From a virus (lineage: Duplodnaviria; Heunggongvirae; Uroviricota; Caudoviricetes), in IMG/VR virus record IMGVR_UViG_3300044799_000708: 64,000 nt of DNA; one strand, 5' to 3'. The position numbers were made by a program, and so were the translations under genes. Below are positions 7,119 to 20,870 of this stretch, one piece after another. Below the pieces are notes generated by a model, which saw only the letters and a list, made by a program, of their open reading frames with translations, had not been told where the DNA came from and ran no database searches. Position 1 is the first letter of the stretch; every line of letters begins with the position of its first letter.

Positions 7119-7379
7119 TTATGTCACCTTTTTTAGCCTTTGTTTCAATTTCGGCAATCTTATATTTTCGTAATATTTTATTTTCTTTCTTATTCTTTCT
7201 TTCTCTGGAAACAAATAAATTGTGCCTTCAATAGGTCTGTATACTATTGTCTTTTCTTTGCCTAAATCCTTTAGCAGTGTTTTTAGACTTTTAACTTTTT
7301 TTTCTCCGATTTCTATATTCTTTTTCAACAACCATTTTGTTCCTAATATTGGAAATTGTCTGGATATGTCAATTTTCAT
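7119..7379 (-). CDS. hypothetical small protein (86 aa)
   Basis: Array member; stop 1 nt from next start. Confidence 0.5.
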   Translation of the reverse strand: MKIDISRQFPILGTKWLLKKNIEIGEKKVKSLKTLLKDLGKEKTIVYRPIEGTIYLFPEKERIRKKIKYYENIRLPKLKQRLKKVT

Positions 7380-7380
7380 A

Positions 7381-7605
7381 TCATATCACCTCTTTCAGTT
7401 TTTCCCTCTGTTTATAACCGACAATAGGATAACCCAGACCTTTCATCAACTGTAAATATTCTATAATATTTTTGTCGGAGGGGGGGACATCATCTGTTTT
7501 TTTGTATCCTTTTCTTTCCCATTCGTCAAGTATTTTTCTCACCTTGTCTATTGCCTGTTGTTTGGTATAAAATTGATGCAGGACATATACTCCTTCGCTC
7601 ATCAT
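7381..7605 (-). CDS. hypothetical small protein (74 aa)
   Basis: Starts ATGATG inside GGTGATATGATG junction; ends LKEVI. Confidence 0.5.
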   Translation of the reverse strand: MMSEGVYVLHQFYTKQQAIDKVRKILDEWERKGYKKTDDVPPSDKNIIEYLQLMKGLGYPIVGYKQREKLKEVI

Positions 7606-7763
7606 ATCACCTTTCTGATTCTCAAATCTTCAAATGGTTTTTTTTGAGGGTTGGTTATGCTATGCAATGGACAGGTCGCATAAACTGAAAAATATCCTTT
7701 TGATATTTTCCAACCCTTGCCACCATGATATACTTTGCCACACTCGCTACATTTGACCATCAT
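7602..7763 (-). CDS. zinc-ribbon protein (53 aa, below track cut-off)
   Basis: Hand translation MMVKCSECGKVYHGGKGW..ATCPLH..RKVI; stop TGA overlaps next ATG within GGTGATATGATG. Confidence 0.4.
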   Translation of the reverse strand: MMVKCSECGKVYHGGKGWKISKGYFSVYATCPLHSITNPQKKPFEDLRIRKVI

Positions 7764-7891
7764 ATCACCCTTCCTATTTTTGCATGTAATTCCATTAATT
7801 TATTTCGGCATCTGAATAAATCTTGATTAAGATTTTCAATTTCTTTTTTTAGTAATATATTTTCTGTTTCTAATGTCTGTATTTTATTCAT

Positions 7892-8191
7892 TTATATCAC
7901 CCTTCCTATTTTTCTCTGGAAATTTTCAATTTGGTTTGCTATCATATGCGCCTTTCCATATCCCATTCCATGTTTCATCAGGTCTCTTTCGGCAAATTCG
8001 TGCATAAGGATATGCTTTCTCTCCTTTACAGGTATGGATTTTTCTATCCAAATCTGGTTCTTGGGTATGTAATCATAAGCCTTGTCGTGACCTCCAAAAA
8101 CGAAGCCGACATCGAGCAGGTTTCGTATCCTTGTTCCATCAACTATTTTAATTACCAGCTTTCCTATTTTGTTGAACTTTTTTCCTTTCAT
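7892..8191 (-). CDS. hypothetical protein (99 aa)
   Basis: Array member; ends IGRVI with junction motif. Confidence 0.5.
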   Translation of the reverse strand: MKGKKFNKIGKLVIKIVDGTRIRNLLDVGFVFGGHDKAYDYIPKNQIWIEKSIPVKERKHILMHEFAERDLMKHGMGYGKAHMIANQIENFQRKIGRVI

Positions 8192-8382
8192 ATCACATCT
8201 TTCAATTCTTTCAATTTCTTCCTGCTTAATGTCACTTTGAATCCTCTTTCTATAAAATCTGCACTTCGTTCTTCACTTTCCCTTAATGAATCTGCGTGTA
8301 ACAGCATCAATGGAACTCCTTCCGATGAGGATATGAATATCTCATATTTTCCTTCCTTTCCTTTCTTCTTTTCTTTTTCCAT
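8188..8382 (-). CDS. hypothetical small protein (64 aa)
   Basis: Array member; ends LKDVI. Confidence 0.5.
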   Translation of the reverse strand: MEKEKKKGKEGKYEIFISSSEGVPLMLLHADSLRESEERSADFIERGFKVTLSRKKLKELKDVI

Positions 8383-8383
8383 A

Positions 8384-8569
8384 TTACATTACCTTTTTCA
8401 GTCTTTCAAAAAATATTTCATATGGGTATCCTTCTACCCTATCAGTTCTTTTCACTATTGCTATTTCTCCTTTTTTTAATGTCCTCTGAAACTTTCCTGC
8501 CGTTTCTAATGCCTCTTCTTTAAATTTGTATGCTTCTTTCATAGTAATTCCTTTTTTATGAAACATCAT
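8384..8569 (-). CDS. hypothetical small protein (61 aa)
   Basis: Array member; ends LKKVM. Confidence 0.5.
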   Translation of the reverse strand: MMFHKKGITMKEAYKFKEEALETAGKFQRTLKKGEIAIVKRTDRVEGYPYEIFFERLKKVM

Positions 8570-8799
8570 ATCACATCCTTTAAGTGAACGAATTCCTTTT
8601 TCTTTCTGTCAAAACCAAGAACACCGATGGTTATTCCAGTTTCCCCTATCAGACGGAATTTTGCTTGTGAATTTATTATCAGATGTTTCCGTATGTCTGG
8701 ATTCATTACGAAATAATCCCACATTTTTTCAGAAGTTCCACTTTTTATTGTCTGAAAATGCTTTCCATCTGGTGCGAATTCCACTCTTGCTTTTGTCAT
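8566..8799 (-). CDS. hypothetical small protein (77 aa)
   Basis: Array member; ends LKDVI. Confidence 0.5.
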   Translation of the reverse strand: MTKARVEFAPDGKHFQTIKSGTSEKMWDYFVMNPDIRKHLIINSQAKFRLIGETGITIGVLGFDRKKKEFVHLKDVI

Positions 8800-8800
8800 A

Positions 8801-9046
8801 TCATATTACCTTCTTTAATCCCTTTTTGTGTCTAAAATATCTCTTTTCTTTGACATACGCTGTTTCTAATATTTTATCTCCACGCATTTCATCTGGAAGC
8901 AATTGCCAAGATTTCGTTCCATCAGATTCTTTTATAAAATATACTAAAACATCTCGTTCATTATTTGTTACTATTGCTTCCCCCAAATCTCCAACCCATA
9001 ATTTTTTACCTCTTCTAAAGGTAAAATATGGTTTTCCTTTTGGCAT
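8801..9046 (-). CDS. hypothetical small protein (81 aa)
   Basis: Array member; ends LKKVI. Confidence 0.5.
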   Translation of the reverse strand: MPKGKPYFTFRRGKKLWVGDLGEAIVTNNERDVLVYFIKESDGTKSWQLLPDEMRGDKILETAYVKEKRYFRHKKGLKKVI

Positions 9047-9201
9047 TTTATATCACCCTTTCATATCTTCTTTTATATGCATCGATTACAATTTCTGCTA
9101 ATTTTTGGTAATCACGCAATCTGGCTTCTTTTATGGTATGATTATGTATTATATCTATCATTTTTTCCTCTTCATTTTGGGTAAATTTTAGATTCGCCAT
9201 A

Positions 9202-9429
9202 TCATATCACCATTCCAGCCTTTTTTTTGTCTAACAATAAATCTCTTCTATACTTTTCATATTCTAAATCTGTCATGCCAACTCTGTATCCACAATTCAT
9301 GCAAATCATTTTACCTGCAAAAATTCCAGATGTGTGTTTGAAAAGCCCGAACATCGCACCGCATTTTGGGCATTTTTTTGGATTATATGGTGTCAAGTAA
9401 AATCTCACTTTTTGTTCTTCGGACATCAT
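9202..9429 (-). CDS. zinc-ribbon protein (75 aa)
   Basis: CPKCG..x..CMNCG; MM start. Confidence 0.5.
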   Translation of the reverse strand: MMSEEQKVRFYLTPYNPKKCPKCGAMFGLFKHTSGIFAGKMICMNCGYRVGMTDLEYEKYRRDLLLDKKKAGMVI

Positions 9430-9603
9430 TTCACCTTTTTCATTTTAGCCCTGCTATGAAGCGACTGCGTTCTTGTAGCCATATCCCATAGCGATTTCCT
9501 TTTTCCTTTCGGCTTTTGGAACATTATGTCAGTCGCTTTGAGCAGAAGACCGCCTGCTATCACAGTTCCACCGAGACCAATCAAATTATCGAGCATTGAC
9601 ATT

Positions 9604-9801
9604 TCATATCACCTTTTTTAAACCATAGACTACTATTGATTTTTTTATGATATTGGGGTCTTTCATTAATTCTTTTGTTCTTCTTTTAACTTCATTTGTA
9701 TCGAAAGTATATTCATCTATTTGAGGTGGGAGATTTCGAGAAATCTGAAATGAACGCTTATATTTATATATAATCATCTTTAATTTTCTTTTTTCTACCA
9801 T
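9604..9801 (-). CDS. hypothetical small protein (65 aa)
   Basis: Array member; ends LKKVI. Confidence 0.5.
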   Translation of the reverse strand: MVEKRKLKMIIYKYKRSFQISRNLPPQIDEYTFDTNEVKRRTKELMKDPNIIKKSIVVYGLKKVI

Positions 9802-10170
9802 CTATATCACCTTCTTTAATTTCTCCAATCCCTTTATTTTTCCAGTTTTTTCATCAACTTTCAAATTTATGAATTTCTTTCCTGTCGGTTGCCAGCTTGA
9901 AGCACCGAAAATGGGGTCAGGCTCGTATTCTATTTCCTGCCCTATGACATTTTCGTATATCTTTTTGCTTGAAACATATGGGAATTCTTTGGAGGAAATA
10001 TCGAAAGCTGAATCAAGCCCATCTCTCATGGGTCTCCAGTCGCCTCGTATTATTGTTATTCTGCCTTTCGGCTTTCCTTTGACAAATCTATCTGCTACAT
10101 TTATTTGCCATATAGTTCCCAAATCATGGACTTCGACTATTACGCCTTTCTTTTTAATATGATATGGCAT
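9802..10170 (-). CDS. hypothetical protein (122 aa)
   Basis: Array member; ends LKKVI. Confidence 0.5.
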   Translation of the reverse strand: MPYHIKKKGVIVEVHDLGTIWQINVADRFVKGKPKGRITIIRGDWRPMRDGLDSAFDISSKEFPYVSSKKIYENVIGQEIEYEPDPIFGASSWQPTGKKFINLKVDEKTGKIKGLEKLKKVI

Positions 10171-10185
10171 ATTATCACATCTCCT

Positions 10186-10371
10186 TTATATCACCCTTTT
10201 GAGTTTTTTCTGACCCCATTTTGTATTTTTAAGATTCTCAAATATGCTATCAACCTCTTTAGTTGTCATATGTTTTCTCATATCTATTGCAAAATCCTTT
10301 GAGGTTAATCCATATCTTTCCATCTTTCTTATCAAATATTCTTTCTGTGACATTCTTTTGAGTTTTTTCAT
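10186..10371 (-). CDS. hypothetical small protein (61 aa)
   Basis: Array member; ends LKRVI; three further ORFs under 60 aa (including a CHKC..CPLCG zinc ribbon) fill 10372..10838. Confidence 0.5.
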   Translation of the reverse strand: MKKLKRMSQKEYLIRKMERYGLTSKDFAIDMRKHMTTKEVDSIFENLKNTKWGQKKLKRVI

Positions 10372-10827
10372 CAGACCACCATACCCATTTTTTTAGCCTT
10401 TTTGCGGAATTGCCTGCGTAACAATTTTATTTCATAAACATTTTTTTTGCTAATACAGAAATCTAATGCCGAAAGGAATCCCCTCAAATATATTTTATCA
10501 TATTGTGTAACTTTTCTCATATTATATCACTCTTCCTAATTTTTTGACCCTATATATTTCGAAAGCGTGTGCCTTGTCGAGTTTCCTTGTAATTTTTTCC
10601 GCCTTTGTTTTGGATGAATGCCGTGATAATGTTTCCCAGTGTGGCTCATCCCATCGGTTAAGGATTTGAACTGCATATTTTTTCTTCATCTTTCTTTTCA
10701 TTATATCACCTTCAACATCTTCAACATCTCAATCTCGGTGTTCCGCAAAGGGGGCAGTATGTTGAAGTATTTATTCCTCCTTTTGCTTTTACTTCGTATT
10801 CTTTTTTGCATTTGTGGCATTTGGTCA

Positions 10828-11235
10828 TCATATTACTCTCTCCAGTCCTCTTGTCGATAACGGCAGTTGTATGGGTTTTGCGATATATGGTTCTACGAAA
10901 TCGACATCTCTGATGATGTCCTGCTCTATCATCACTGACTTTTGGTCTAACTTTGTTGCTGTTTCCTTTGCCAAATCATGCATGAATTCCCAGTCTGTCT
11001 TGAAAATCAAGCGATGGTCTTGTCCTGCTCTGACATCCCTTGCAGATACCAGCAGAAAATTGTCGTCATAGACCGCTTGCTTTGTTTTCGGATTCTTCCA
11101 GTATCCCCTTATCATTGGGAATATAGTTACTCCTTCAAAGTGACTCACCATTTTATCGGCTACCTTTTCCATTTCCTCCCTTTTCGATATTGGTATTATG
11201 ATTTTGAATGTCCTCTCGTTTGGTGCATAGCCCAT
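10828..11235 (-). CDS. hypothetical protein (135 aa)
   Basis: Array member; ends LERVI. Confidence 0.5.
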   Translation of the reverse strand: MGYAPNERTFKIIIPISKREEMEKVADKMVSHFEGVTIFPMIRGYWKNPKTKQAVYDDNFLLVSARDVRAGQDHRLIFKTDWEFMHDLAKETATKLDQKSVMIEQDIIRDVDFVEPYIAKPIQLPLSTRGLERVI

Positions 11236-11420
11236 TCATATCACCCTTTTGAGTTTCTTTATTCTCTTCAGATGTTCAGCCTGAACTTGAATAAAAGCCC
11301 TTTCCATATCATTAAGCTTTTCCTTTCTGAAAAATTTTTCTTTTATATTCTCAAGCATAGCATTCTGCCATTTAAGTGAACCGAATTTATATTTTTTGGG
11401 GTCTTCCATTCATATCACCT

Positions 11421-11687
11421 TTATATTATATGCGCCAACTGGTATGCTCTCACATCATCCAGTTTCTTTGCATGTTTTTCCATCAGCTTTCTTTTCTTCC
11501 ATGACCAGTCAACCATTCCGTCTATGATTTTTGTTCCCTGTATCACGAAATTCTCTATGAATCTCATATCCTTTTCTGGTATTTTTTGCCCAAATTTAAT
11601 TCTGAAATTAATGTCTTCCCATATTGAAGGAGGGCGATATAGTTTTGCATATCTTTCTGGATGCTTTTTTGCCTTCTTTTTTGCCAT
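11421..11687 (-). CDS. hypothetical small protein (88 aa)
   Basis: Array member. Confidence 0.5.
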   Translation of the reverse strand: MAKKKAKKHPERYAKLYRPPSIWEDINFRIKFGQKIPEKDMRFIENFVIQGTKIIDGMVDWSWKKRKLMEKHAKKLDDVRAYQLAHII

Positions 11688-11870
11688 TTAAATCACAGAC
11701 ATTATTTTATTTCGGATTCTCTCCCATTTTTCTATCGCTTGAAGATTAACCAAGCCTTCCCTGTTTATCGCTACCATATCTTTTTCCACATTTCGCACAG
11801 GAAAGCGCAGGGCATCGATTTTTAGTTCCCTTAAGGCATCTGTCAGCAAATGCTGTTCAACTATGTCCAT
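11688..11870 (-). CDS. hypothetical small protein (60 aa)
   Basis: Array member. Confidence 0.45.
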   Translation of the reverse strand: MDIVEQHLLTDALRELKIDALRFPVRNVEKDMVAINREGLVNLQAIEKWERIRNKIMSVI

Positions 11871-12160
11871 TATACAACACCTCTTAATTTTTTCAGTAGG
11901 TTTCTTCCTTTCGTGCTTGTAAACGGTATGAATTCTATCGTAAAGTTTCCATCATGTCTGCCAACCTTTCTGAATTGCCTTAATCTTTCATCAATCGTAT
12001 ATCCTTCGAAGCTCGATAATTCTCTCATCATATCACCTTTTTTAATTTCTTGTATCTTTTTTCTTTTTTCAGTAAACGCATATGACAGACTGCGTGTTCT
12101 GGTTGAAGGTGTTCTTCGCACCAAAGTATAACTCCTTCTATGCTTTTGCAAACACCGCAT
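11870..12160 (-). CDS. hypothetical small protein (96 aa)
   Basis: Array member; ends LRGVV. Confidence 0.5.
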   Translation of the reverse strand: MRCLQKHRRSYTLVRRTPSTRTRSLSYAFTEKRKKIQEIKKGDMMRELSSFEGYTIDERLRQFRKVGRHDGNFTIEFIPFTSTKGRNLLKKLRGVV

Positions 12161-12183
12161 CTTGTTGGTATCATCATATCACC

Positions 12184-12438
12184 TTACATAGCGAATGCCT
12201 TATGGAATTTTTCCATTTCCCTTTCTTTTTTAATCTGTTCTATCTGCATCTGGTGATTGAGCATGATGTCATATGCCTTGTCGAAATCTTTATCGCAGTT
12301 GGCAAGATTTTGTTTAATTTTTTTACATCCTGCCTTTTTTGTTAGTTCTCCCATAGTTTTCTTTCTGTCATCAACGCTGGCGACAAATATTTTATCGCCA
12401 CCTATTATGCTCATGTCATTTTTAATTCCAAGCATCAT
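12184..12438 (-). CDS. hypothetical small protein (84 aa)
   Basis: Array member; MM start. Confidence 0.5.
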   Translation of the reverse strand: MMLGIKNDMSIIGGDKIFVASVDDRKKTMGELTKKAGCKKIKQNLANCDKDFDKAYDIMLNHQMQIEQIKKEREMEKFHKAFAM

Positions 12439-12674
12439 ATCACCTTTTTTATTTTTCCCCTTTGTCTTTCTACATAGTCATGTATGGCTTGAATTTCTCC
12501 TTTGGTCATGGCTATCGCACCGCCACCGATTACTGACATTGGCAATGCTTCTCCGATAAGAGAAGATGGTATAGATGCACCAAGACCAATTGCCCCTAAA
12601 CCCATCAAATATGTGGTTAAATTTGGATGTTTTTTGACGAATTTTAACAATTTTCCTTTTTCATTTATTTTCAT
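12435..12674 (-). CDS. small glycine-zipper membrane protein (79 aa)
   Basis: GLGAIGLGASIPSSLIGEALPMSVIGGGAIAM; ends IKKVI. Confidence 0.5.
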   Translation of the reverse strand: MKINEKGKLLKFVKKHPNLTTYLMGLGAIGLGASIPSSLIGEALPMSVIGGGAIAMTKGEIQAIHDYVERQRGKIKKVI

Positions 12675-12866
12675 TTATATCACCTTTGCCATTTTCCTTT
12701 TCGCCATATTTATGAAATCCTTCGGATGTTTTTTGAAGACTTCCAGTTTTCCTTTCAGACAGTCGTATCTGTCAGGCATTTCCTTGTAATTCAGGCAGTC
12801 CTCGAATATCCACTCGATTACTATCTGGATGTCCTCTTTGGTTATCATTACATCACCTCTTGCCAC
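12675..12866 (-). CDS. hypothetical small protein (63 aa)
   Basis: Array member; ends MAKVI. Confidence 0.45.
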   Translation of the reverse strand: MARGDVMITKEDIQIVIEWIFEDCLNYKEMPDRYDCLKGKLEVFKKHPKDFINMAKRKMAKVI

Positions 12867-12981
12867 AACTTCGTCAATAATGAAAGTCTTTCTGGTCTTG
12901 CTTCTACCTTTATTTTTTTCATTCCTTTCATTCTGGCATAGTCCAATAGACCGTGCCTTATGACCAGTCTTGTTCTTTCCA

Positions 12982-13215
12982 TTATATCACTTTTTTTATT
13001 TTTTGCACAGTTATCTCCATGCTCATTGGTATGGTTTCTGCATATGACGACATCGTAATTAGGTCAAGTTTTACTTTATGCAATGTCGATTCAATATCAT
13101 TAAGAATCGTGCTTACTGTTCCCATAGAAGTGATATTTTTAACTTTGAATTGCATGTATTCCTTGTATTTCTTATGTTCTTTTTCTCTTTTTATTTCAAG
13201 TTTTGTTTTTATCAT
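12982..13215 (-). CDS. hypothetical small protein (77 aa)
   Basis: Array member; ends IKKVI. Confidence 0.5.
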   Translation of the reverse strand: MIKTKLEIKREKEHKKYKEYMQFKVKNITSMGTVSTILNDIESTLHKVKLDLITMSSYAETIPMSMEITVQKIKKVI

Positions 13216-13562
13216 ATTATTTTCGCCAATTTTATCTTCATATCTGGAATCTCTATGAAATTATTATAATCCTTTACAATCTGACTGCTTATTTCCTTGA
13301 ATTCCTTTTTGGCTATGTCATAGAGACCGCTTTTGTCATAATCGCCAACAACTACAATCCTATCGCCTGCCCATCTTCCTGCTGATGGATAAGGTTTCAT
13401 TATGTCTCCACCGCCACCTTCGCTGCTTTTCCTCAAAAGCAAGGGGAAAAGTCTTGTGGGATTGTTTGCTGATATTTCCCAAAGTTTTGCACCGCAGCCA
13501 AGTCTATGTGGATGAATATATTCCTTTTTGTCAAGATTTACAATTAGAAAATATTGTCCCAT
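13212..13562 (-). CDS. hypothetical protein (116 aa)
   Basis: Array member; ends LAKII. Confidence 0.5.
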   Translation of the reverse strand: MGQYFLIVNLDKKEYIHPHRLGCGAKLWEISANNPTRLFPLLLRKSSEGGGGDIMKPYPSAGRWAGDRIVVVGDYDKSGLYDIAKKEFKEISSQIVKDYNNFIEIPDMKIKLAKII

Positions 13563-14015
13563 TCATATCACCTTCTTTAATTTATCCTTTGAACGAATTG
13601 TTTCCCATTTTCCAATATCCGTTGTGGATTTCCATGAGCCTGTTCTGCTTCTTACCTTTATTTCTCCAGTTTTTGTATTAATGTCATACTCGTATTCAGC
13701 CCAGTCATCATAATGCGAAATGTCACTAATATCATAATCTTCAGCAGAAACTACAAAACCACGCCTTATTCCTTTTTTTATTTTTTCTATTGGAAGTTTG
13801 TGTTTCTTTACAAGGTATTCCTCACGTTCTTTTTGCAGTTCTTTCAGAACGATTTTGTCAGCAAAATCTATTATATGTTTTTTGGCAACGCTCATTATGG
13901 ATTTAATCGTTGGTCTTGCTTTTTTCAGGTCTTCACCAAGACCTTCTGGATTACCATCCCAGTGCGTTGCAAATATCGGCTTTCCATCAATCTTAATCAT
14001 CGCTCTTGTTCCCAT
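13563..14015 (-). CDS. hypothetical protein (150 aa)
   Basis: Array member; ends LKKVI. Confidence 0.5.
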   Translation of the reverse strand: MGTRAMIKIDGKPIFATHWDGNPEGLGEDLKKARPTIKSIMSVAKKHIIDFADKIVLKELQKEREEYLVKKHKLPIEKIKKGIRRGFVVSAEDYDISDISHYDDWAEYEYDINTKTGEIKVRSRTGSWKSTTDIGKWETIRSKDKLKKVI

Positions 14016-14222
14016 TTACATCACCTTCTTTAGTTCATTTTTTACGTCTTTCAAAAACCTTATCATCTGATTTATGCCCTTTATGTCCAGATATAATCTT
14101 TCTGGTTCTTTTGGATAACCTATTGAAACTATTGCTTCTTTTGTGGTTTCAAAATCGTGGATTCTGAATGAAACTGGTGTTCCAACTTCACCGATTTCCA
14201 CTTTTTCATTTTGTTTTACCAC
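14016..14222 (-). CDS. hypothetical small protein (68 aa)
   Basis: Array member; ends LKKVM. Confidence 0.5.
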   Translation of the reverse strand: MVKQNEKVEIGEVGTPVSFRIHDFETTKEAIVSIGYPKEPERLYLDIKGINQMIRFLKDVKNELKKVM

Positions 14223-14375
14223 TCATACCACCTTCTTCAGCTTTTTCAGTTCCCTGATGGATTTTTTGTCCCTCTTTATTCCCATTTTTGCTTCTGAAAT
14301 GTCTTCTTTCAGATGGGCGATTAGGTTTCTGATTATCGCTTTCTCTATCGCCTTCTTCATTTAACCACCTTTATT

Positions 14376-14642
14376 CTATAATATTTTCTTCAGTCCAGTA
14401 GGAACTTTTGCTCTCGGATGCCTGTAAAGTATTCCGTGAACAAATTTCCTTACATGAGGGTCTCCAACCGCTATGTCCTTTTTGCTGACGAGGAAAGCCT
14501 GCGTTTTCCATTTTCCGCTTTTCTTCAGGCACGCTATCCTCTTGCTGTGACCTTTTCTTCCTATATCATGTGTTCTACAGGTCACAGTTCCCTTTGGCGA
14601 AGACACTCTTATGTGGACATACTTGCTTCTCGATTTTATCAT
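14376..14642 (-). CDS. highly basic small protein (88 aa)
   Basis: K/R/H-rich: SKYVHIRVSSPKG..RKGHSKR..; ends LKKIL. Confidence 0.5.
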   Translation of the reverse strand: MIKSRSKYVHIRVSSPKGTVTCRTHDIGRKGHSKRIACLKKSGKWKTQAFLVSKKDIAVGDPHVRKFVHGILYRHPRAKVPTGLKKIL

Positions 14643-14655
14643 CTATATCACCTTT

Positions 14656-14853
14656 TTACCAAACACTTTTGAGTTTCTTTTTTGATATTGTCTTGCCCAT
14701 GTCTGCCAGCGACTTCATTTTCTTTTTCTTGCCGTATTTTGTATACATCTGCGATAGGGATTTTCCTTCGAATTTTCCTTTTTTCCCACGCTTTGCTCTG
14801 TCAAGCACGCTTGGCATTCTTACAGCCTGTTCCATTAAACTTATTCTTTTCAT
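14656..14853 (-). CDS. highly basic small protein (65 aa)
   Basis: RAKRGKKGKFEGK..KYGKKKKMK; Lys-rich. Confidence 0.45.
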   Translation of the reverse strand: MKRISLMEQAVRMPSVLDRAKRGKKGKFEGKSLSQMYTKYGKKKKMKSLADMGKTISKKKLKSVW

Positions 14854-14865
14854 ATTTTACCTCCA

Positions 14866-15360
14866 TTATATTATTTTCTTTAGTTTCATCAATTGCTTTT
14901 TTCTTATTGCTTCGACAGGTATCAGTTCCCCTTTTCTTTCCTTCTTCAAGACCTTTATGGCTTTCTGGAAAGCCCTTTTTGCCTCTGCCCTCTTTGGTTC
15001 TTTTGCGTATTTCCTTCTTGCAACCTGCGTTGCCAGCATTCCAAGCCAAGACCTTCCTGTTATCCCCGACTTTTCGAAGACACTTCTCCATTCGGCTTCG
15101 GTTAATGCGGATGGGTGCTTCTCATAGCCGAGTGCCTTGAAGACCGCATATTTCATTCTGCCCTTTTTCAGGTCTGGCATTCCTCTCGGTCTTAAAGACC
15201 TGCCGACTGCGCCTATGTCCTTTATGTAGAATTTTGTTCTGGAAACACAGAATGGCTTTATTTTTGTCGCAGGGACTTTTACTCCGCCCTTTCTTTTATA
15301 TGCCTTTCTTGCATATCCTCTTTTGCAATATGCTTTCCTATGCACCAATAATCTTTTCAT
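14866..15360 (-). CDS. highly basic protein (164 aa), possible nucleic-acid-binding
   Basis: HRKAYCKRGYARKAYKRKGGVKVPATKIKPF...; about 30% K+R; ends LKKII. Confidence 0.5.
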   Translation of the reverse strand: MKRLLVHRKAYCKRGYARKAYKRKGGVKVPATKIKPFCVSRTKFYIKDIGAVGRSLRPRGMPDLKKGRMKYAVFKALGYEKHPSALTEAEWRSVFEKSGITGRSWLGMLATQVARRKYAKEPKRAEAKRAFQKAIKVLKKERKGELIPVEAIRKKQLMKLKKII

Positions 15361-15597
15361 TTACATCACCTTCTTTATTCTCTTTTTCCAGATTTCTCCT
15401 AATTTTTTCTTTAATTCCTTTTCATCTATAAGACTTGACCCAACTATACCTCCAGCCGTTGCTAATGACAAAGGAACACCAATAGCAGGTTCTGTTAAAA
15501 GTAATGCTAATGGCACTCCTCCTAAACCAGCACCAGCCAGTTCTGGATAATACCTTTTTAACATTTTTTTTATTTCTGGTTTTTTCATATGTTCCAC
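15361..15597 (-). CDS. small glycine-zipper membrane protein (78 aa)
   Basis: AGAGLGGVPLALLLTEPAIGVPLSLATAGGIVG; ends IKKVM. Confidence 0.5.
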   Translation of the reverse strand: MEHMKKPEIKKMLKRYYPELAGAGLGGVPLALLLTEPAIGVPLSLATAGGIVGSSLIDEKELKKKLGEIWKKRIKKVM

Positions 15598-15954
15598 CTA
15601 TTCTATATACGTCAATTTCTCCTTTGATTTTGCAGTTATTTGTTTTTCGGGCAACTGCTCACTGGCTTCTTGCATAGCCTCCATCACCATTCCGATTTTT
15701 TTCTCCGCTTCCTTTAGCATCAAATCAATTTCGCAAAGGGAATATCCTATTGCGAATTCATTTACGCCCCTTTTCTGCATAAGCTTTATGAATTCTGTTT
15801 TTTTCTCTCCACCGCTTTTCTTTAGCAAATCAAACATTTCACTCACATTCAGCCCGACAACATCATGCGGTGAGAATTCCCCCTTTTTATCAACTGTTTC
15901 CACGAAATCCTTGCTCGTCATTCCAAGTTTTTTTTCTATTTTTTTCTTTTCCAT
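15598..15954 (-). CDS. hypothetical protein (118 aa), paralog of 18391..18756
   Basis: Alignable with the 18391 ORF; both end K-L-T/S-Y-I-E. Confidence 0.5.
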   Translation of the reverse strand: MEKKKIEKKLGMTSKDFVETVDKKGEFSPHDVVGLNVSEMFDLLKKSGGEKKTEFIKLMQKRGVNEFAIGYSLCEIDLMLKEAEKKIGMVMEAMQEASEQLPEKQITAKSKEKLTYIE

Positions 15955-16098
15955 ATCATATCACCAGTCCCATTTTGCGTTTAAGGTATCTTTCACGCTC
16001 TCGTTCTTCTAATGTTAATTCTCTTTTAGGAAGAGCGAGCAAGTCTACCAGTTCCAGTTTTTCCTTTTGTGTCAGCCCCTTTCTTTTTGACCCTTTCA

Positions 16099-16284
16099 TT
16101 ATATCACCTTTTTTATTTTTTTCTTCCATTCTTTGGCAAGTTTTTCTGCTTCACGTTTACTTGGAAGAACATCTGCATCAAAGACGACAAGACTTCCATC
16201 TTTCTCCTTGTAATATCTTCTCGTCACCCATGCAGGTGGAGAAAGTTCATCATCATAGTATACATCGACATATGTTTTCTTCAT
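16099..16284 (-). CDS. hypothetical small protein (61 aa), copy 1 of exact duplicate
   Basis: Identical protein and DNA to 19976..20161. Confidence 0.55.
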   Translation of the reverse strand: MKKTYVDVYYDDELSPPAWVTRRYYKEKDGSLVVFDADVLPSKREAEKLAKEWKKKIKKVI

Positions 16285-16298
16285 TTTATATCACCTTT
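16101..16298. repeat. 198-bp segment duplicated exactly at 19978..20175
   Basis: Nucleotide-identical; contains a whole 61-aa gene; both ends lie in the tatatcacc junction motif. Confidence 0.8.
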
Positions 16299-16454
16299 CT
16301 TATTTTTCCTATAATTCTATTCAAATTTCCTATTGTTGTTTCAAAATCTTTCTTGAAATAAGCTGAACGCTCATCGATGTCGCTTCTTTTTATTTCATTT
16401 AAAATTTCAATTAAATCATTTGCTTCTGTTTTTGTTAAATGAATTACTTTCATA

Positions 16455-17147
16455 TCAAATCACCTTTTCCAATTTTTTGACGAAATGTGCCTTTTCCCAT
16501 GTCTTTATTTTTTCAAGTTCACCATGAACGAAATCCTCGAATTTGTGTATGTCTTTTTCGATTTCTGCCTGCAGTTTCTTGTTTCTTATGAGTTTTTCTG
16601 CGACCACGCCTGCGACAATGGGTGAGGAAGCAATTGCCCAAGCAAGCGGTGGGTTTACTGCTTCGAGTTCTTCAACCAATGGCATAAGGAACTGCGTGCC
16701 TACCACTGTTGACCCCACGAAAGCATATGGATAGTCTTTTGCCTTAATCCTTTGGACATAAAGAGGATAATGGATTATTGGAATCATGCCGAAAATAGGC
16801 ATTTTTGCCTGCTTCTGGACATGGAGAATTTGCCCTTTTACCGCTTTGTCTATTCCTATGAACAGGTTCTTTTCTTTGTCGTGGGCATATCTGTCACCCT
16901 TAATATTGGCATAGATGTCAAAACCCTTCACCCTTTCTTTTACCTTTTTGAAGAATGGAATTCTTGTATCTATGTCCATTTCCTTTGTTACTTTCAACCT
17001 TTTGTGCCAGTTCTCTTCGCCCATGCCAATAAGTTCCCCTGTCTCTTCATCGAGGACATAAGGCAGTTTTTTCTTTGTGTCCAAGAATCTTATACCTGCT
17101 TCATCTGATATACCTGCAAGTTCGTATCTGAATTCCTTTCCCTTCAT
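16455..17147 (-). CDS. hypothetical protein (230 aa)
   Basis: Array member; ends LEKVI. Confidence 0.55.
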   Translation of the reverse strand: MKGKEFRYELAGISDEAGIRFLDTKKKLPYVLDEETGELIGMGEENWHKRLKVTKEMDIDTRIPFFKKVKERVKGFDIYANIKGDRYAHDKEKNLFIGIDKAVKGQILHVQKQAKMPIFGMIPIIHYPLYVQRIKAKDYPYAFVGSTVVGTQFLMPLVEELEAVNPPLAWAIASSPIVAGVVAEKLIRNKKLQAEIEKDIHKFEDFVHGELEKIKTWEKAHFVKKLEKVI

Positions 17148-17443
17148 ATAACTTCCTCAAGTCTTTCTTTTCCTTTCATGCCAGCCTGCCAAAAAGAGCC
17201 TCCGTATAATTTCTTTTCTTTAAGACTCCATTTGGTCATCAATGCACCTAATCCGACAGCACCAGCACCTATGACTATTTCTGGGTTCAGACCTGCAAGG
17301 AAAACGGAAGATAGCCCTCCTTCCATGACTGCCATATCGATTAGGTCATTGTGTTTTCTGTAGAATTCCCTTATTTTTGCTGGCTCATGCTTTATTTTTC
17401 CGAATTCTCTGTTCAGGAATTCTATGATTTTTCTTTTGTCCAT
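17144..17443 (-). CDS. small glycine-zipper membrane protein (99 aa)
   Basis: EGGLSSVFLAGLNPEIVIGAGAVGLGALM; ends LEEVI. Confidence 0.5.
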   Translation of the reverse strand: MDKRKIIEFLNREFGKIKHEPAKIREFYRKHNDLIDMAVMEGGLSSVFLAGLNPEIVIGAGAVGLGALMTKWSLKEKKLYGGSFWQAGMKGKERLEEVI

Positions 17444-17594
17444 TAGATTACCTTTTTCAATTTTTCTATAGTTATTTTTACATCTTCAATGGTCTTTTCT
17501 TCCCATTTATTCCATTTTATATTATCATGCGGAAAATCCATTATATCTTCAATTTCTGTTCCCTTTTTGAATATTTTTGATATTTTTTGGGGCA

Positions 17595-18014
17595 TCATAT
17601 CACCCTCTTCAATTTATTATCTTTGTAACTGATGCGAATATTATTGAAAACTGCATCCCTTGCCCTTTTAATTAATGTTGGTGTGAGAAATTCTTTTGGT
17701 TGTTCCTCTGTCCCTGTTTCAAAACTCGTAATAAATGGTGCTTTTCCGAATACTATTTTATAGTCGTGGGCGAGTCCGTTATAATCTGCAACAAGACTTC
17801 CGATTTTTTCAAGGATGTATCCGTGTCTTATCAGTGGCTCTAAATCGCCTTTCCATTTGGCAACCTCCATTATTATTCCATTTGCCCTGTTCACCATAGA
17901 TGTCGAAATGGCTATGCTTTCATTTATGGCAGGAACATTGGGGATTCTATTTGCGTGTTCCGATAGTTTTTCGAATTTGATATTTGCGGATTCAATGTCG
18001 TTTTTGGTTATCAT
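17595..18014 (-). CDS. hypothetical protein (139 aa)
   Basis: Array member; ends LKRVI. Confidence 0.5.
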   Translation of the reverse strand: MITKNDIESANIKFEKLSEHANRIPNVPAINESIAISTSMVNRANGIIMEVAKWKGDLEPLIRHGYILEKIGSLVADYNGLAHDYKIVFGKAPFITSFETGTEEQPKEFLTPTLIKRARDAVFNNIRISYKDNKLKRVI

Positions 18015-18133
18015 ATTAAACCACCTTTCCGATTTTCTTGCTTATCTTTAGCTTTTCATTAAGGTTTGCCTGTTTGAAAGGCAAATTCCATAGCTTTAAG
18101 CTTTTGATAAATTCCGAATGCCATCCTGCCATA

Positions 18134-18385
18134 TCAAATCACCCTTCTTAATTTTTTTCTATCCAGTCTTTCTATTTCTTTAAGCGTATCTGCCATTTCC
18201 TTGCTGCAAAAATCAAGTTCTGTTTTTAACTGGTTTCTCACCTTTCTGAAAGGTTCTGCTCTGATACCTACTCTTTTTGAAAGTGAATCGAAATGCTCAT
18301 ATTCGCTGGCTGTTTTGTTTTTCATTCCAAGCACTTCTCCAAAATACTGAACCAACCTTTCCCTTTTATCTGATTTTTTCATCAT
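18134..18385 (-). CDS. hypothetical small protein (83 aa)
   Basis: MM start; ends LRRVI. Confidence 0.5.
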   Translation of the reverse strand: MMKKSDKRERLVQYFGEVLGMKNKTASEYEHFDSLSKRVGIRAEPFRKVRNQLKTELDFCSKEMADTLKEIERLDRKKLRRVI

Positions 18386-18390
18386 ATCAC

Positions 18391-18756
18391 CTATTCTATA
18401 TATGATAATTTTGCTTTATCTCTGTCAATTTTTTGTTTTTCAGTTGTGCCTGCACCCATCATGGTTTCTGCGAGTTTTCTTAACATTGGGTCTGATTTCA
18501 TTTGTTCAAGCATTTTCTGTTTTTCTTCTATTTCCAAAACAGTTTGGGTAGCCATTCTCGAACTCCATCCCCATGAAAAATCAGTCATTCCCATTGCCTT
18601 GAAATCTTGGACAACATCGCTCAAAGTATTATGTTTTTTCAATACGTCAATAAATTGCATTTTATCTATTCCAATAACTCGGCTATCATCCAAAGGTTCT
18701 TTCTTTTTTAATTTGTTTATGAATTGTTCACCAGTAATACCTATTTTTTCTTTCAT
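18391..18756 (-). CDS. hypothetical protein (121 aa), paralog of 15598..15954
   Basis: Shared ..F..LKK.. core and C-terminal KLSYIE. Confidence 0.5.
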   Translation of the reverse strand: MKEKIGITGEQFINKLKKKEPLDDSRVIGIDKMQFIDVLKKHNTLSDVVQDFKAMGMTDFSWGWSSRMATQTVLEIEEKQKMLEQMKSDPMLRKLAETMMGAGTTEKQKIDRDKAKLSYIE

Positions 18757-18972
18757 TCAAATCACCTTCTCCAAAGCACTACGAATTCTTGGATTGTTCA
18801 TCGCCTGTTCATGGGGCGAAAATCCATACCTATCAAGTTCATCCTGCGTTATCGTGAAGGTTATTGGAATCTGCATTCTTACAGTTCCATGAGGCTCTAA
18901 CATTCCAGTTTTTGGGATATGCCTTTCTTCCTTTCGTTTCTTCAATATATTTTTTATGAATCCCAATGCCAT
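18757..18972 (-). CDS. hypothetical small protein (71 aa)
   Basis: Array member; ends LEKVI. Confidence 0.5.
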   Translation of the reverse strand: MALGFIKNILKKRKEERHIPKTGMLEPHGTVRMQIPITFTITQDELDRYGFSPHEQAMNNPRIRSALEKVI

Positions 18973-19221
18973 TTAGACCACTTTTTTTAATTTCTTTCTT
19001 GCAGAGAGTTTTCTATCCAGTTCTTTAATCAATTCAGGTCTCTTTTTTAGTTGTGGATAATCCCCTCTATGCGCTAACACGGCAACCCAATAGTCATGTA
19101 TATCATGCTTCAGCCCTTTGATATTCATCGCATGAAAACAGGTATTGCAAGGATAACCTGTATGTTGTATTTCACAACCAGTCTTTGCGACCAATTTCTT
19201 TCTGAAAATTTCTTTATCCAT
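18973..19221 (-). CDS. hypothetical small protein (82 aa), Cys/His-rich
   Basis: CEIQHTGYPCNTCFH..; ends LKKVV. Confidence 0.5.
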   Translation of the reverse strand: MDKEIFRKKLVAKTGCEIQHTGYPCNTCFHAMNIKGLKHDIHDYWVAVLAHRGDYPQLKKRPELIKELDRKLSARKKLKKVV

Positions 19222-19451
19222 TACACCACTGCCTCCAATTTCCTTGCCTTCACCTTTTTTATTTTGTATGCCATCTCTCCCAACCGTATTGCTGGCATAT
19301 CTCTAAATATACTGCCCTTTGGTTGGCTTTTTGCCCATTTTTGATATTTTGCCTCATATCTTTTCTTTGCCTCTTCAGCCTGTTCTTTGGTTGGATAAAT
19401 TTTTTTGGGATACCATTCAAATTCATCCATTTCTTCAAGAACAAATGCCAT
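19221..19451 (-). CDS. hypothetical small protein (76 aa)
   Basis: Ends LEAVV. Confidence 0.5.
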   Translation of the reverse strand: MAFVLEEMDEFEWYPKKIYPTKEQAEEAKKRYEAKYQKWAKSQPKGSIFRDMPAIRLGEMAYKIKKVKARKLEAVV

Positions 19452-19476
19452 ATCAAATCACCTTTTTTCCTTTCAT

Positions 19477-19974
19477 CTATACCACCGCCTCAAGTTTTCT
19501 TGCCTTTCTGCATACAAGAATCTCTTCCGAAGGCAGAACGCTTGTAGGCACTTCTGCCCTTTCGACTTCTTCTGTTGGCACTACCGCTTCAGGTGATGGA
19601 ACGCCACCAAATTCCCATTTCTTTCTTTTTGCGCCTTCCACAATCCCTTCGCCGATAGCACGAAATCCATGTTCGATGTGCGTTTCCATACTTGCTATCC
19701 TTTCGGCTGGCGTTAAGCCTTCAATGCTCATCTTGTGGCGCAGACCTTCTGCCATAGCATGAAGAAATTTATGCTCTTCTGGACTTTCAGTTGCCCAGTG
19801 AATAATGCCACTTTTTGTGCGGTGCAGTATTCCACGATGCTTCGGCTTTTCTTCCAGTTCTATTTCCTTTTCTGGAAGCCCTTCCGCAGATAGCTCAACA
19901 TACTCGTCTTTTCTGACTCTTGACCTGTCCATAATGCTTTTCGCTTTCGACCTCTTCAATAGACTTTCTGCCAT
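19477..19974 (-). CDS. hypothetical protein (165 aa)
   Basis: Ends LEAVV. Confidence 0.5.
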   Translation of the reverse strand: MAESLLKRSKAKSIMDRSRVRKDEYVELSAEGLPEKEIELEEKPKHRGILHRTKSGIIHWATESPEEHKFLHAMAEGLRHKMSIEGLTPAERIASMETHIEHGFRAIGEGIVEGAKRKKWEFGGVPSPEAVVPTEEVERAEVPTSVLPSEEILVCRKARKLEAVV

Positions 19975-19975
19975 A

Positions 19976-20161
19976 TCATATCACCTTTTTTATTTTTTTC
20001 TTCCATTCTTTGGCAAGTTTTTCTGCTTCACGTTTACTTGGAAGAACATCTGCATCAAAGACGACAAGACTTCCATCTTTCTCCTTGTAATATCTTCTCG
20101 TCACCCATGCAGGTGGAGAAAGTTCATCATCATAGTATACATCGACATATGTTTTCTTCAT
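19976..20161 (-). CDS. hypothetical small protein (61 aa), copy 2 of exact duplicate
   Basis: Identical to 16099..16284. Confidence 0.55.
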   Translation of the reverse strand: MKKTYVDVYYDDELSPPAWVTRRYYKEKDGSLVVFDADVLPSKREAEKLAKEWKKKIKKVI

Positions 20162-20175
20162 TTTATATCACCTTT
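19978..20175. repeat. second copy of the 198-bp duplication
   Basis: See 16101..16298. Confidence 0.8.
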
Positions 20176-20399
20176 TCCAATTTTTTTATTGCGAACATTC
20201 CTGTTCCATTTTTTCTCGGAAATGCTCTATAATAATATCCTTTTTCTGGTTTTCTCACATAGATTGCTCCATTCTTCAAAATAACAGAAACTCCTGCTCT
20301 TCTAAAATCTTGTATCATTGCATTCCAAATACCTTTGGGTCTGATATAGATTTTATTTCTGAATCGAATTCTTTCAGGCGTAGGTTTCCATTTCTCCAT
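20163..20399 (-). CDS. hypothetical small protein (78 aa)
   Basis: Ends LEKVI. Confidence 0.5.
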   Translation of the reverse strand: MEKWKPTPERIRFRNKIYIRPKGIWNAMIQDFRRAGVSVILKNGAIYVRKPEKGYYYRAFPRKNGTGMFAIKKLEKVI

Positions 20400-20744
20400 T
20401 CATATCACCTTTTTTATTTTTCTTTTGGCGAGATAATCACTAATTTTTTGACCTAAAATATCTCCAAGTCCCCACGCACCGAATGGTAATGCCACCACGC
20501 CAAGTTCGGGATGACCAAGAACTATTCCTATTACTGTCTCTCCAGTTGCAATCCCTGCAGTCAATTTAGCCCAATCTTTAGCACCAATTATTTTTTTTGC
20601 CATCATATCACCTTTCCTATCTTTTTGCACGCACAGAATTTGACCGCTTTCTTGAATTCTTTTTGCCAAGCCTTTTTGCCAGAATAACGCTTTTTTGAGA
20701 GTTTTGTCTTCATGCATCTTTGGAATTTCATAAATTTTCTCCAA
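20400..20744 (-). CDS. small glycine-zipper membrane protein (114 aa in track, probably 105 aa)
   Basis: Track start is TTG; in-frame ATG at 20717 is more likely and sits near the AT-rich promoter. Motif GIATGETVIGIVLGHPELGVVALPFGAWGLGDILG; ends IKKVI. Confidence 0.5.
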   Translation of the reverse strand: MEKIYEIPKMHEDKTLKKALFWQKGLAKRIQESGQILCVQKDRKGDMMAKKIIGAKDWAKLTAGIATGETVIGIVLGHPELGVVALPFGAWGLGDILGQKISDYLAKRKIKKVI

Positions 20745-20870
20745 ATATATTAATTAATAATATAATGTTGATTTTACCACTATTTACCTGTATGTAATAC
20801 CTTTTTGAGTATTTTGGTAAAAAATTCGTTTGTAATACATCTTTTTAAATGATAGAAACAAAAAATATTT
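20745..20870. promoter_or_regulatory. divergent promoter region
   Basis: AT-rich 126-nt spacer between divergent genes; CTTTTTAAAT at 20841..20850 lies exactly 20 nt upstream of ATG 20871 (leaderless spacing); TTATATTATTAATTAATATATTT on the other strand upstream of 20744. Confidence 0.45.

Follow-up and report, generated by a model that had tools for sequence, protein, structure and literature searches.

It has long been asked by what means phages acquire, lose and rearrange their many small accessory genes, and two main views exist: homology at short boundary sequences, or random illegitimate exchange followed by selection. The window analysed here, a whole stretch of 64,000 nucleotides from an uncultured, large, phage-like element, poses this question in a concrete form: one complete small gene stands in it twice, at two different gene borders, in identical form.

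A duplicated cassette in an array with a shared gene end

The two copies of the repeat, termed R (Table 1), match at 198 of 198 positions upon self-comparison of the window, in direct orientation and with an offset of 3,877 bp. Identity ends at once on both sides, the only exception being two matching bases past a single mismatch (16100/19977). R is the sole long exact repeat of the window, the next longest being a 150-nt repeat with 75% identity between two endonuclease paralogues; the chance of a 198-nt exact match in 64 kb at 36% GC is far below plausible. Each copy extends from 14 nt 5' of the ATG (AAAGGTGATATAAA) through the whole ORF and ends with the first base of the stop codon, which is TAA in copy 1 and TGA in copy 2. 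Both ends of identity sit in a stop/SD/start junction motif, ATATCACC on the plus strand or GGTGATAT on the minus strand. An earlier note on this DNA had described an exact 198-bp duplication of a complete 61-aa gene with its RBS context, diverging right outside the repeat, with break points inside the junction motif, which would make the duplicated unit a gene cassette bordered by junctions; the self-comparison bears out all of these points. With 0 differences in 198 bp, R has been copied very recently to the second junction.

Both R ORFs encode the same 61-aa protein (MKKTYVDV...KKIKKVI), whose fold comprises three strands and a helix. No significant match to this fold was found in the PDB, and neither R nor any of the genes of block B, located between the two copies, has a Pfam or PHROG match. 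The block B genes encode products of 165, 76, 82, 71, 121, 82, 38, 139, 50, 99, 230 and 55 amino acids. One TnpB has its best relative in an archaeal MAG.

Table 1. Coordinates in the window of the array, the two copies of R, their junctions and the neighbouring cassettes.
Feature	Position	Strand	Description
Array	6244..20731	-	~59 tightly packed ORFan genes on a single strand, 14.5 kb, operon-like
R copy 1	16101..16298	-	Exact 198-bp repeat: SD and 61-aa ORF 16099..16284, stop TAA
R copy 2	19978..20175	-	Exact 198-bp repeat: SD and 61-aa ORF 19976..20161, stop TGA
Junction 55aa/R1	16285..16301	-	…AAGAAAGGTGATATAAAATG; upstream end of identity
Junction 78aa/R2	20162..20178	-	…GGAAAAGGTGATATAAAATG; upstream end of identity
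Junction R1/47aa	16097..16122	-	AAAAAATAAAAAAGGTGATATAATG; downstream end of identity
Junction R2/165aa	19972..19999	-	AAAAAATAAAAAAGGTGATATGATATG; downstream end of identity
Block B	16299..19977	-	Between the R copies; 11-12 ORFan genes
55-aa cassette	16286..16453	-	Downstream of B in the window; upstream of B in L023; third context in L025
67-aa cassette	20400..20603	-	Upstream of B in the window; downstream of B, directly before the 47-aa gene, in L012-14
Divergent intergenic region	20732..20870	.	Upstream of the array

R and block B belong to a long array in which the gap from stop to next start measures -4 to +1 nt at 44 of the 58 junctions. The array products share a C-terminal tail, found in 49 of 59 with the pattern [LIMV]-x-x-[VI]-[IVML], also described as K-[LIM]-x-[KR]-V-I-stop; it is present in 43/53 array genes versus 1/110 genes elsewhere in the window. 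Likewise, 27 of the 28 minus-strand GGTGATAT sites fall within the array. The tail consensus, AAA-YTR-AAR-AAG-GTG-ATA-TRA, encodes K-L-K-K-V-I-stop, and its last codons form the SD (GGTGAT) for the gene that follows; the ATG of that gene overlaps the stop or starts at most 1 nt after it. The junction is an element of ~20 nt (8-23 nt common to gene borders) whose SD is translated in frame, forming the final codons of the upstream gene, and hence nearly every array protein ends in K-[LIM]-x-[KR]-V-I. Unrelated ORFans with this ending number ~59 in the array and well over 100 across related contigs. It is at the amino-acid level that the tail is conserved. The earlier view of the junctions as ~14 nt of RBS homology is right in that they contain the SD, but the shared element is larger, being a coding one with a tail conserved as protein.

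The best sigma-70-like match (TTGGCA-17-TATCAT, 20877-20849, minus strand) lies in the intergenic region upstream of the array and is a candidate array promoter. Promoter-like matches modestly exceed those of shuffled controls, at positions away from the junctions, and terminator-like sites are not enriched (7 found, 10.6 expected). No hairpins were found at the array junctions and no inverted repeats at the cassette borders in 15800-20500, the junction being a direct repeat.

The junctions around R have long stretches in common with those of other cassettes. The tails of the 78-aa and 230-aa genes have 20 nt in common, exactly, and the R1/47aa junction has 20 exact nucleotides in common with the tail of the 67-aa cassette, the gene that occupies this position in the related contig L012.

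A second assembly, a single-copy variant and relatives

A second, independent assembly of the locus is provided by the Logan k=31 unitigs of run SRR35360741. Three of them (L002, L003 and L004) match the window at 100% identity. Their breaks fall at 20146, 20007 and 16130, in each case exactly k-1 = 30 nt into R, so that in this assembly R forms a repeat node which two paths leave and at which two or more arrive. R is entered from the side of the 78-aa gene and left towards both the 165-aa and the 47-aa genes. The unitig of block B stops at 16346 and not at the R1 boundary; the joint between the 55-aa gene and R1 is seen directly only in the window, and is implied by the branch at 20146. With A and C designating the flanking genes, the assembly graph is identical for a linear A-R-B-R-C molecule and for A-R-C accompanied by a circular or concatemeric R-B.

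The A-R-C structure itself exists in a JGI contig, L001, which carries one R without the 3.9 kb between the copies and joins window positions 22585-19975 directly to 16307-12942. Only two real SNPs separate it from the window, both on the C side, the A and R side being 100% identical. Identical direct repeats around 3.7 kb, together with a natural variant holding one repeat and no interval, form the pattern of repeat-mediated deletion, and the existence of this variant counts in favour of the earlier interpretation.

More distant relatives tell where B and R lie. The B genes are collinear between a homologue of gene 20603-20731 and the C-side genes in L005 (50-70% amino-acid identity), L012-14 (85-98% nucleotide identity) and L023 (80-93% nucleotide identity), and R is absent beside B in all of them; B is hence ancestral at this site. 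R has three other sets of neighbours, in L015/16 (~90% nucleotide identity), L011 (77% amino-acid identity) and L005 (66% amino-acid identity), and in each the homology around R ends in junction motifs on both sides. R moves as one unit. Other cassettes do likewise. A 73-aa ORF of L012 sits precisely between TAA and ATG as an insertion with a junction at either end, the 67-aa and the 55-aa cassette each change from one side of B to the other depending on the strain, and L023 has the order of two neighbouring cassettes exchanged. At least six cassette-level differences were counted between strains whose shared backbone is 90-97% identical over ~5 kb. The absence of other junction-bounded rearrangements in related genomes had been named beforehand as what would speak against cassette shuffling; many gains, losses, replacements and permutations of this kind were found.

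A gene start lies no more than 25 nt away from 61 of the 81 homology-block ends, versus 21% expected (binomial P ~1e-25); at least two breakpoints, at window 18722 and 15748, interrupt genes. Short conserved gene-end sequences thus coincide with mosaic breakpoints, as in the boundary-sequence model of phage mosaicism. Exact homology between junction pairs has a median of 6 nt (control median 3 nt), and reaches 20-23 nt between the junctions flanking R and those of the cassettes replacing R in relatives.

Possible routes of duplication and rival explanations

The favoured explanation, considered rather probable, is recombination at junction homologies within a hyperplastic ORFan array, with R duplicated at junctions. 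Each array gene would be a standardised cassette, running from the ATG to the shared tail, and since the tail of every cassette is the next SD, the same 8-23 nt recur at every gene boundary. R would have been copied to a second junction by recombination or template switching between junctions. The duplication may have taken one of three routes: an unequal crossover between sister or co-infecting genomes, a tandem duplication of R, B and the 55-aa gene followed by a junction-to-junction deletion, or the excision and re-integration of a small circle. Once in place, the identical copies bracketing B would be substrates for ordinary homologous recombination looping B out, and the product would match the structure of L001 exactly. 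The direction of change is presumably from the window type to the L001 type; L001 could also be the parent rather than the product.

It is less likely that selection alone has shaped the array: illegitimate recombination would occur at random, only joints at gene borders would survive, and the motif would have no mechanistic part, as in the Hendrix/Hatfull view of phage mosaicism. A median exact homology of ~6 nt is indeed little for a homology-driven process, some breakpoints fall inside genes, and purifying selection acting on random illegitimate recombination would likewise leave breakpoints at gene borders. In mycobacteriophages, conserved boundary sequences are usually absent, and illegitimate exchange is favoured (PMC3029335). 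However, the array has almost no intergenic space, so that a random joint must land in register, with single-nucleotide precision, at both ends, and still the cassette-level differences between close strains have accumulated. Moreover, the junctions involved around R have far more than the typical homology in common, and the 73-aa cassette of L012 has the junction on both sides. The earlier proposal that the junctions serve as microhomology for shuffling stands as regards junction-bounded events in relatives; that the crossovers are guided by junction homology, and not left to selection alone, is what we infer.

The window might instead be a recombinant of two co-infecting strains with one R each, for example A-67-78-R-B... 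and ...55aa-R-C, with L001 as the parental or sister form. This is improbable as a separate account. One junction crossover would be enough, the A and R side of L001 is free of differences while both SNPs lie on the C side, and the position of the 55-aa cassette upstream of B in L023 means that alternative orders circulate. Yet two strains with an identical R are needed, neither proposed parent is observed, and every outgroup has B flanked by the A and C genes, which makes the A-R-C form most simply a deletion; furthermore, this account is a variant of junction-homology recombination, as a junction crossover is still needed. It is very improbable that the duplication was invented by an assembler, each genome having one R with B threaded into the repeat or two strains joined. 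Such an artefact would fit the existence of L001, and A-R-C plus a circular R-B molecule would satisfy the assembly graph, but the Logan assembly branches exactly at the repeat limits with two exits from R, 198 bp is less than the insert of ordinary paired-end libraries, so that the repeat is resolvable, and every relative has B between the same A and C genes, where it therefore belongs. Least credible of all is a long-standing pair of paralogues whose identity gene conversion maintains, or R as a selfish element (transposon, MITE or homing gene). R does occur in several different contexts, and old paralogues exist in the array, for instance the genes of 118 and 121 aa with 25% identity; but the relatives, with no R beside B, offer nothing on which conversion between old copies could act, R was found to have neither terminal inverted repeats nor target-site duplications, its 61-aa protein has no nuclease or transposase signature, and cassettes unrelated to R behave alike.

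Known systems and the meaning of the array

The closest analogy to the favoured junction-homology recombination is found in T4-type phages, in which recombination between repeated regulatory cassettes, the PeSLs, shuffles ORFans and makes mini-circles (PMC2839356). Exchange in the array may be regarded as analogous to this shuffling (Arbiol et al. 2010, PMC2839356; Comeau et al. 2014, PMC4122927): in both, a short motif recurs at many ORFan borders of a plastic region and marks the limits of what close relatives have inserted, deleted or replaced, recombination between motifs is proposed to proceed by circle excision and re-insertion or by unequal exchange, and each module has its own expression signal. 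Whereas the PeSL is intergenic, measures ~100 bp and comprises a sigma-70 early promoter and a stem-loop terminator, the array motif is ~20 nt long, coding, and serves translation; no enrichment of promoters or terminators was found at it. PeSL phages form mini-circles, while the array is known from sequence, with a graph compatible with a circular R-B form.

Homologous recombination at short shared gene-end sequences has also been proposed for the boundary (linker) sequences of lambdoid phages and for gp67/gp68 of mycobacteriophage Island3 (PMC3029335). The inserted gene of Island3 repeats, in its C-terminal 18 residues, those of the upstream gene (PMC3029335), which is directly comparable to the shared tails flanking inserted cassettes in the array. 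Those examples stand alone or concern motifs that separate functional modules, whereas nearly all ~59 consecutive array genes have the same end, which, unlike these boundary sequences, doubles as SD and conserved peptide tail.

Integrons resemble the array in their promoterless one-ORF cassettes in the same orientation (here ~59 minus-strand ORFs), in the variation of cassette content and order between strains, and in the recombination-prone element at the 3' end of each cassette. They rely, however, on an IntI integrase and an attI site, neither of which is present in the window, and on attC, an imperfect inverted repeat of 57-141 nt that folds as single-stranded DNA and has no counterpart in the array. 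A Pfam scan of the 97 window ORFs of at least 75 aa identified no integrase or recombinase family, and no recombinase was identified in the window except one DprA-like domain (36519-37067); no attC-like inverted repeat was found in 15800-20500. Integron exchange is site-specific, while that of the array would be driven by homology or microhomology, so the integron-like modularity once suggested for this locus is reduced to an analogy. As a direct-repeat mediated deletion, the two-repeat/one-repeat pattern of the window and L001 has nothing unusual; its interest lies in the origin of the repeat and in the surrounding array.

A broader reading, put forward tentatively, is that the array may be a recombinase-free, self-standardising cassette system, in which the amino-acid-level tail would act as a protein signal and the SD/stop would ensure translational coupling, allowing cassettes to be exchanged in register with expression kept. 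With the same sequence at every border, any cassette could be duplicated, deleted, permuted or imported and still be expressed, and the duplication of R and the variant L001 would show such exchange in progress. Members of the R family outside this phage group are without the tail, which suggests that genes acquire it on recruitment into the array. As a signal, the tail might be a turnover, docking or targeting tag. The ClpX C-terminal recognition tag of MuA is RRKKAI (PMC8138137, table 1), and it resembles K-L-K-K-V-I-COOH at the level of sequence, with two basic residues, a small hydrophobic one and Ile at the extreme C terminus; a conserved hydrophobic residue, at position -5, sets the array tail apart from the MuA tag.

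This locus is an unusually clean natural test between the two views of phage gene exchange, combining dozens of consecutive genes with one standard end, a cassette freshly duplicated with zero divergence, a near-isogenic variant without the interval, and permuted strains. Existing sequencing runs would allow a direct reading of how often junctions exchange with one another. That unrelated ORFans should have a C-terminal tail in common, conserved as protein sequence, is unexpected in itself. If this tail is a common signal, it would reveal how the phage handles a whole class of accessory proteins, and would offer a practical rule for recognising the members of such arrays in metagenomes.

Exact duplication of a one-gene cassette

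The two copies of the 61-aa cassette, R1 and R2 (Table), lie 3,877 bp apart in direct orientation. They are identical at all 198 positions and diverge immediately beyond both ends, which confirms the exact duplication of a complete gene described in the earlier note; they also form the sole long exact repeat within the window. The minus-strand ORFs 16099..16284 and 19976..20161 have an identical 61-aa product, R, and the entire ORF, together with the 14 nt 5' of its ATG (AAAGGTGATATAAA), is contained in each copy. The copies first differ at the second base of the stop codon, R1 having TAA and R2 TGA. The 'tatatcacc' motif previously placed at the break points reads GGTGATAT(A) on the gene strand, that is, a Shine-Dalgarno sequence (SD) in front of one gene's stop codon and the next gene's start codon.

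Three Logan unitigs (k=31, run SRR35360741), each 100% identical to the window, cover the A side beyond R2 (L003, ending at 20146), the ORFan block B of 11-12 genes between the copies (L002, starting at 20007) and the C side beyond R1 (L004, starting at 16130). Each of these ends is located exactly 30 nt (k-1) inside R, so that R is a node branching exactly at the repeat limits in an independent assembly. This assembly graph fits the order A-R-B-R-C and, equally, A-R-C accompanied by a circular R-B form. A JGI contig of 5.8 kb, Ga0480573_011681 (L001), fuses window 22585-19975 directly to 16307-12942: it possesses a single R, lacks block B, and exhibits just two real SNPs relative to the window (13161 and 13000). 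To note, unitig L002 terminates at 16346, 48 nt short of R1, within a 55-aa gene and not at the repeat border, which implies a further branch there, reflecting variation either between strains or in structure; the 55-aa protein does occur in variant forms (P0013, P0034, P0035).

Features of the window and their coordinates
Feature	Position	Strand	Remark
ORFan array	6244-20731	-	about 59 genes
R1 (copy 1)	16101-16298	-
R2 (copy 2)	19978-20175	-
Block B	16299-19977		between the R copies
Mini-ORF spacer	19452-19476	-	25 nt, between the 165-aa and 76-aa genes
Old paralogues, 118 and 121 aa	15598-15954 and 18391-18756	-	flanking R1; 25% identity
DNA repeat of these paralogues	15595-15648 / 18388-18441
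TnpB, IS605-type (OrfB/Cas12f-like TNB)	1189-2412	+
TnpB, IS605-type (OrfB/Cas12f-like TNB)	37051-38169	-
DUF559/HNH-type endonuclease paralogues	21611-22738 and 41710-42657	-	45% aa identity over the C-terminal 110 residues
Endonuclease paralogue repeat	21908-22057 / 41875-42024		150 nt, 75% identity
SPFH/Band-7 protein	42692-43525
Cellular-type gene cluster	51139-55383	-	within a phage-like context
TPM domain	51139-51750	-
LemA	51771-52358	-
492-aa protein	52331-53809	-	two TFIIB-type zinc ribbons
Radical-SAM/SPASM enzyme	53983-55383	-
Three 31-nt direct repeats	58346-58808		77-100% identical, spacing 196 and 236 nt

The array and its shared gene end

The duplication belongs to a single-strand array at 6.2-20.7 kb that is essentially devoid of intergenic DNA: at 44 of the 58 array junctions, a stop is separated from the following start by -4 to +1 nt. 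The array proteins, which are unrelated ORFans, share a C-terminus of the form [LIMV]-x-x-[VI]-[IVML], present in 49 of 59, most of the other ten being near-matches. Its consensus is K-L-K-K-V-I-stop, encoded by AAA YTR AAR AAG GTG ATA TRA (or, more loosely, K-[LIM]-x-[KR]-V-I). The tail is found in only one of the 110 called genes of the window outside the array, and 27 of the 28 minus-strand GGTGATAT sites fall within the array. The reading frame across the SD is constant and yields Val-Ile, and the tail codons double as the SD of the next gene; the stop codon stands at a set distance from the SD, and the following ATG varies in position by 0-2 nt. The earlier proposal that the junctions are ribosome-binding sites thus holds as far as the SD is concerned, but not for a binding site alone, since the junction comprises a coding tail plus the SD.

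At position -5, where a hydrophobic residue is conserved, the codons are varied (TTA 11, ATA 9, TTG 9, CTC 4, CTG 4, ATG 4, CTA 3 and ATC 2), and 53 orthologue pairs display 21 synonymous against 10 amino-acid changes there, those inspected being mostly hydrophobic-for-hydrophobic. Where the SD is a separate element further downstream, the tails (LAHII, LKKII, LKKIL) conform to the pattern as well. The same tails occur in related contigs (35 in L005, 30 in L015, and 14 each in L011 and L012) and are missing from R-family members outside this phage group. The synonymous excess, the retention of the pattern without an overlapping SD, and the near-absence of the tail outside the array make it look constrained as protein as well as RNA.

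Two other features of the array deserve description. Between the 165-aa and 76-aa genes, a 25-nt spacer holds an orphan mini-ORF, ATG AAA GGA AAA AAG GTG ATT TGA (MKGKKVI*), in which a start codon is joined straight to the tail; contig L012 has a spacer of equal length at this place. The mini-ORF may have been left behind when a cassette was deleted, or may act in coupling. The old paralogues of 118 and 121 aa belong to the small group of array genes that lack the standard tail; both terminate in ...YIE, with a TAG stop overlapping the SD (TAGGTGAT).

Cassette exchange in relatives and the origin of the duplication

Comparison with related contigs establishes that the cassette behaviour and junction-bounded rearrangements envisaged in the earlier note are real, as gains, replacements and permutations are all observed. 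Contig L005 (50-70% aa identity) shares the frame of the window, in which a large protein and the array are followed by 540-, 515- and 139-aa proteins. Its B genes are collinear with no R adjoining, and its sole R is found elsewhere, between homologues of 12675-12848 and 11688-11870. Contigs L012-14 (85-98% nt identity) lack R and exhibit the order g20603 homologue, a 70-aa gene, a 59-aa gene, B, the 67-aa homologue of 20400-20603, and 47-aa and 114-aa genes. R is also absent from L023 (80-93% nt identity), ordered as g20603 homologue, a 55-aa gene, B, and then the homologues of 15361-15588 and 15598-15954 in swapped positions (L023 5181-5775 versus window 15361-15954). Inside its block B, L023 carries a 42-aa gene (1651-1779) that matches only the 3' end of the window 78-aa gene upstream of R2 (20159-20244). 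R of L015/16 is ~90% identical at the nucleotide level but its flanks are unrelated, the homology covering window 16094-16308, the cassette alone. L011 provides another distinct context for R; its 168-aa gene following R was considered a homologue of the window 165-aa gene, which the comparison showed not to be the case. In L012, a 73-aa ORF is inserted exactly between TAA and ATG, with a junction on both sides.

Over eight contigs, 61 of 81 homology-block ends lie no more than 25 nt from a gene start, where 21% would be expected (P ~1e-25); the exceptions include block ends inside genes, at window 18722 and 15748. Exact homology between paired junctions has a median of 6 nt versus 3 nt in the control and reaches 20-23 nt at the junctions around R. 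Such a stretch of 20-23 nt is common to the tails of R, of the 67-aa gene and of gene 12435-12674, and 20 nt are common to the 78-aa and 230-aa tails.

At this site block B represents the ancestral state, and R came to both sides of B only recently. The alternative, that the R copies are an old paralogous pair, is rejected in view of L012-14 and L023, which have no R beside B. With no difference over 198 bp, the duplication is much more recent than the split from L012 and L023, which differ by 3-15%. For this recent arrival, every route that can be constructed needs crossovers or template switches within junctions. R could have been inserted by a double crossover or a template switch; a 3,877-bp unit (R-B-55aa) could have been duplicated in tandem, followed by a junction-to-junction deletion; a circle could have re-integrated; or one unequal crossover between two strains could have produced the arrangement. 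The 55-aa cassette precedes B in L023 but follows it in the window, and the 67-aa cassette precedes B in the window but follows it in L012; these cyclic permutations fit duplication-then-deletion or the circle route. Several routes, of one or two junction-crossover steps, agree with the data, and no unique order of events emerges. L001 is most simply the product of homologous recombination between the two R copies, or of a junction-to-junction deletion in a single-R ancestor, and it could also be a parent. Junction homology may be what directs the exchange, as opposed to selection acting as a filter; this inference draws mainly on the lack of intergenic space, on how many events separate backbones that are nearly identical, and on the joints concerned, which share 20-23 nt.

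Genomic surroundings and known systems

Among 50,697 cultured-phage records, megablast of the 15-21 kb region and tblastn of the 861-aa and 520-aa proteins returned no match; the only cultured-phage match is the YopX-domain protein, below 40% identity and mostly to Firmicutes phages. The exact 45-nt R pattern was not found in viral, metagenome or genome contig sets, and the R protein pattern retrieved nothing from viral contigs. The 230-aa profile likewise retrieved nothing from viral contigs, and only already-known loci from metagenomes. The AlphaFold model of R is confident (pLDDT 90.5) and consists of three strands and a helix; Foldseek against the PDB gave nothing with E <0.2, the top match, T7 Gp1.2, being not significant. 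To note, the R profile matches two stretches of a single distant R-family protein (P0019, 149 aa), which may be a fused tandem duplicate.

Outside the array, the window harbors phage-like and accessory genes: an 875-aa beta-helix protein, YopX, DUF5131/radical-SAM proteins, HNH/DUF559 and LAGLIDADG endonucleases, two TnpB, LemA-TPM, SPFH, and a DprA-like domain. The best genome relative of the plus-strand TnpB is from a Candidatus Aenigmatarchaeota MAG (56% identity), the next best being from Bipolaricaulia and Bacteroidetes MAGs; contig L025 likewise has a TnpB, which adjoins its array. At the corresponding endonuclease site, L005 has a short fragment only, pointing to a homing endonuclease that is polymorphic for presence or absence. 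The 31-nt repeats run across small minus-strand genes and resemble either a small family of tandem genes or common gene ends of a type other than that in the array.

The closest known system is the PeSL-mediated modular shuffling of T4-type phages (PMC2839356), which the array resembles in that a motif recurs at the borders of ORFans and delimits indels, and in that circles may form. The PeSL motif is a promoter-terminator of about 100 bp (PMC2839356), whereas this element is absent at the array junctions. The locus also fits the 'short conserved boundary sequence' idea and the Island3 gp67/68 case (PMC3029335). A transposon is rejected, as there are no inverted repeats at the cassette borders in 15800-20500 and the R and B genes have no Pfam or PHROG matches. 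With no attC at these borders and no integrase among the 97 window ORFs of 75 aa or more scanned against Pfam, an integron is rejected as well, and the 'integron-like' modularity of the earlier note stands as an analogy only, its interpretation as a whole being partly supported. The array tail may be likened to the MuA ClpX tag RRKKAI (PMC8138137), as a resemblance only. The interest of the locus lies mainly in its standardised tail and in the natural before-and-after variants.
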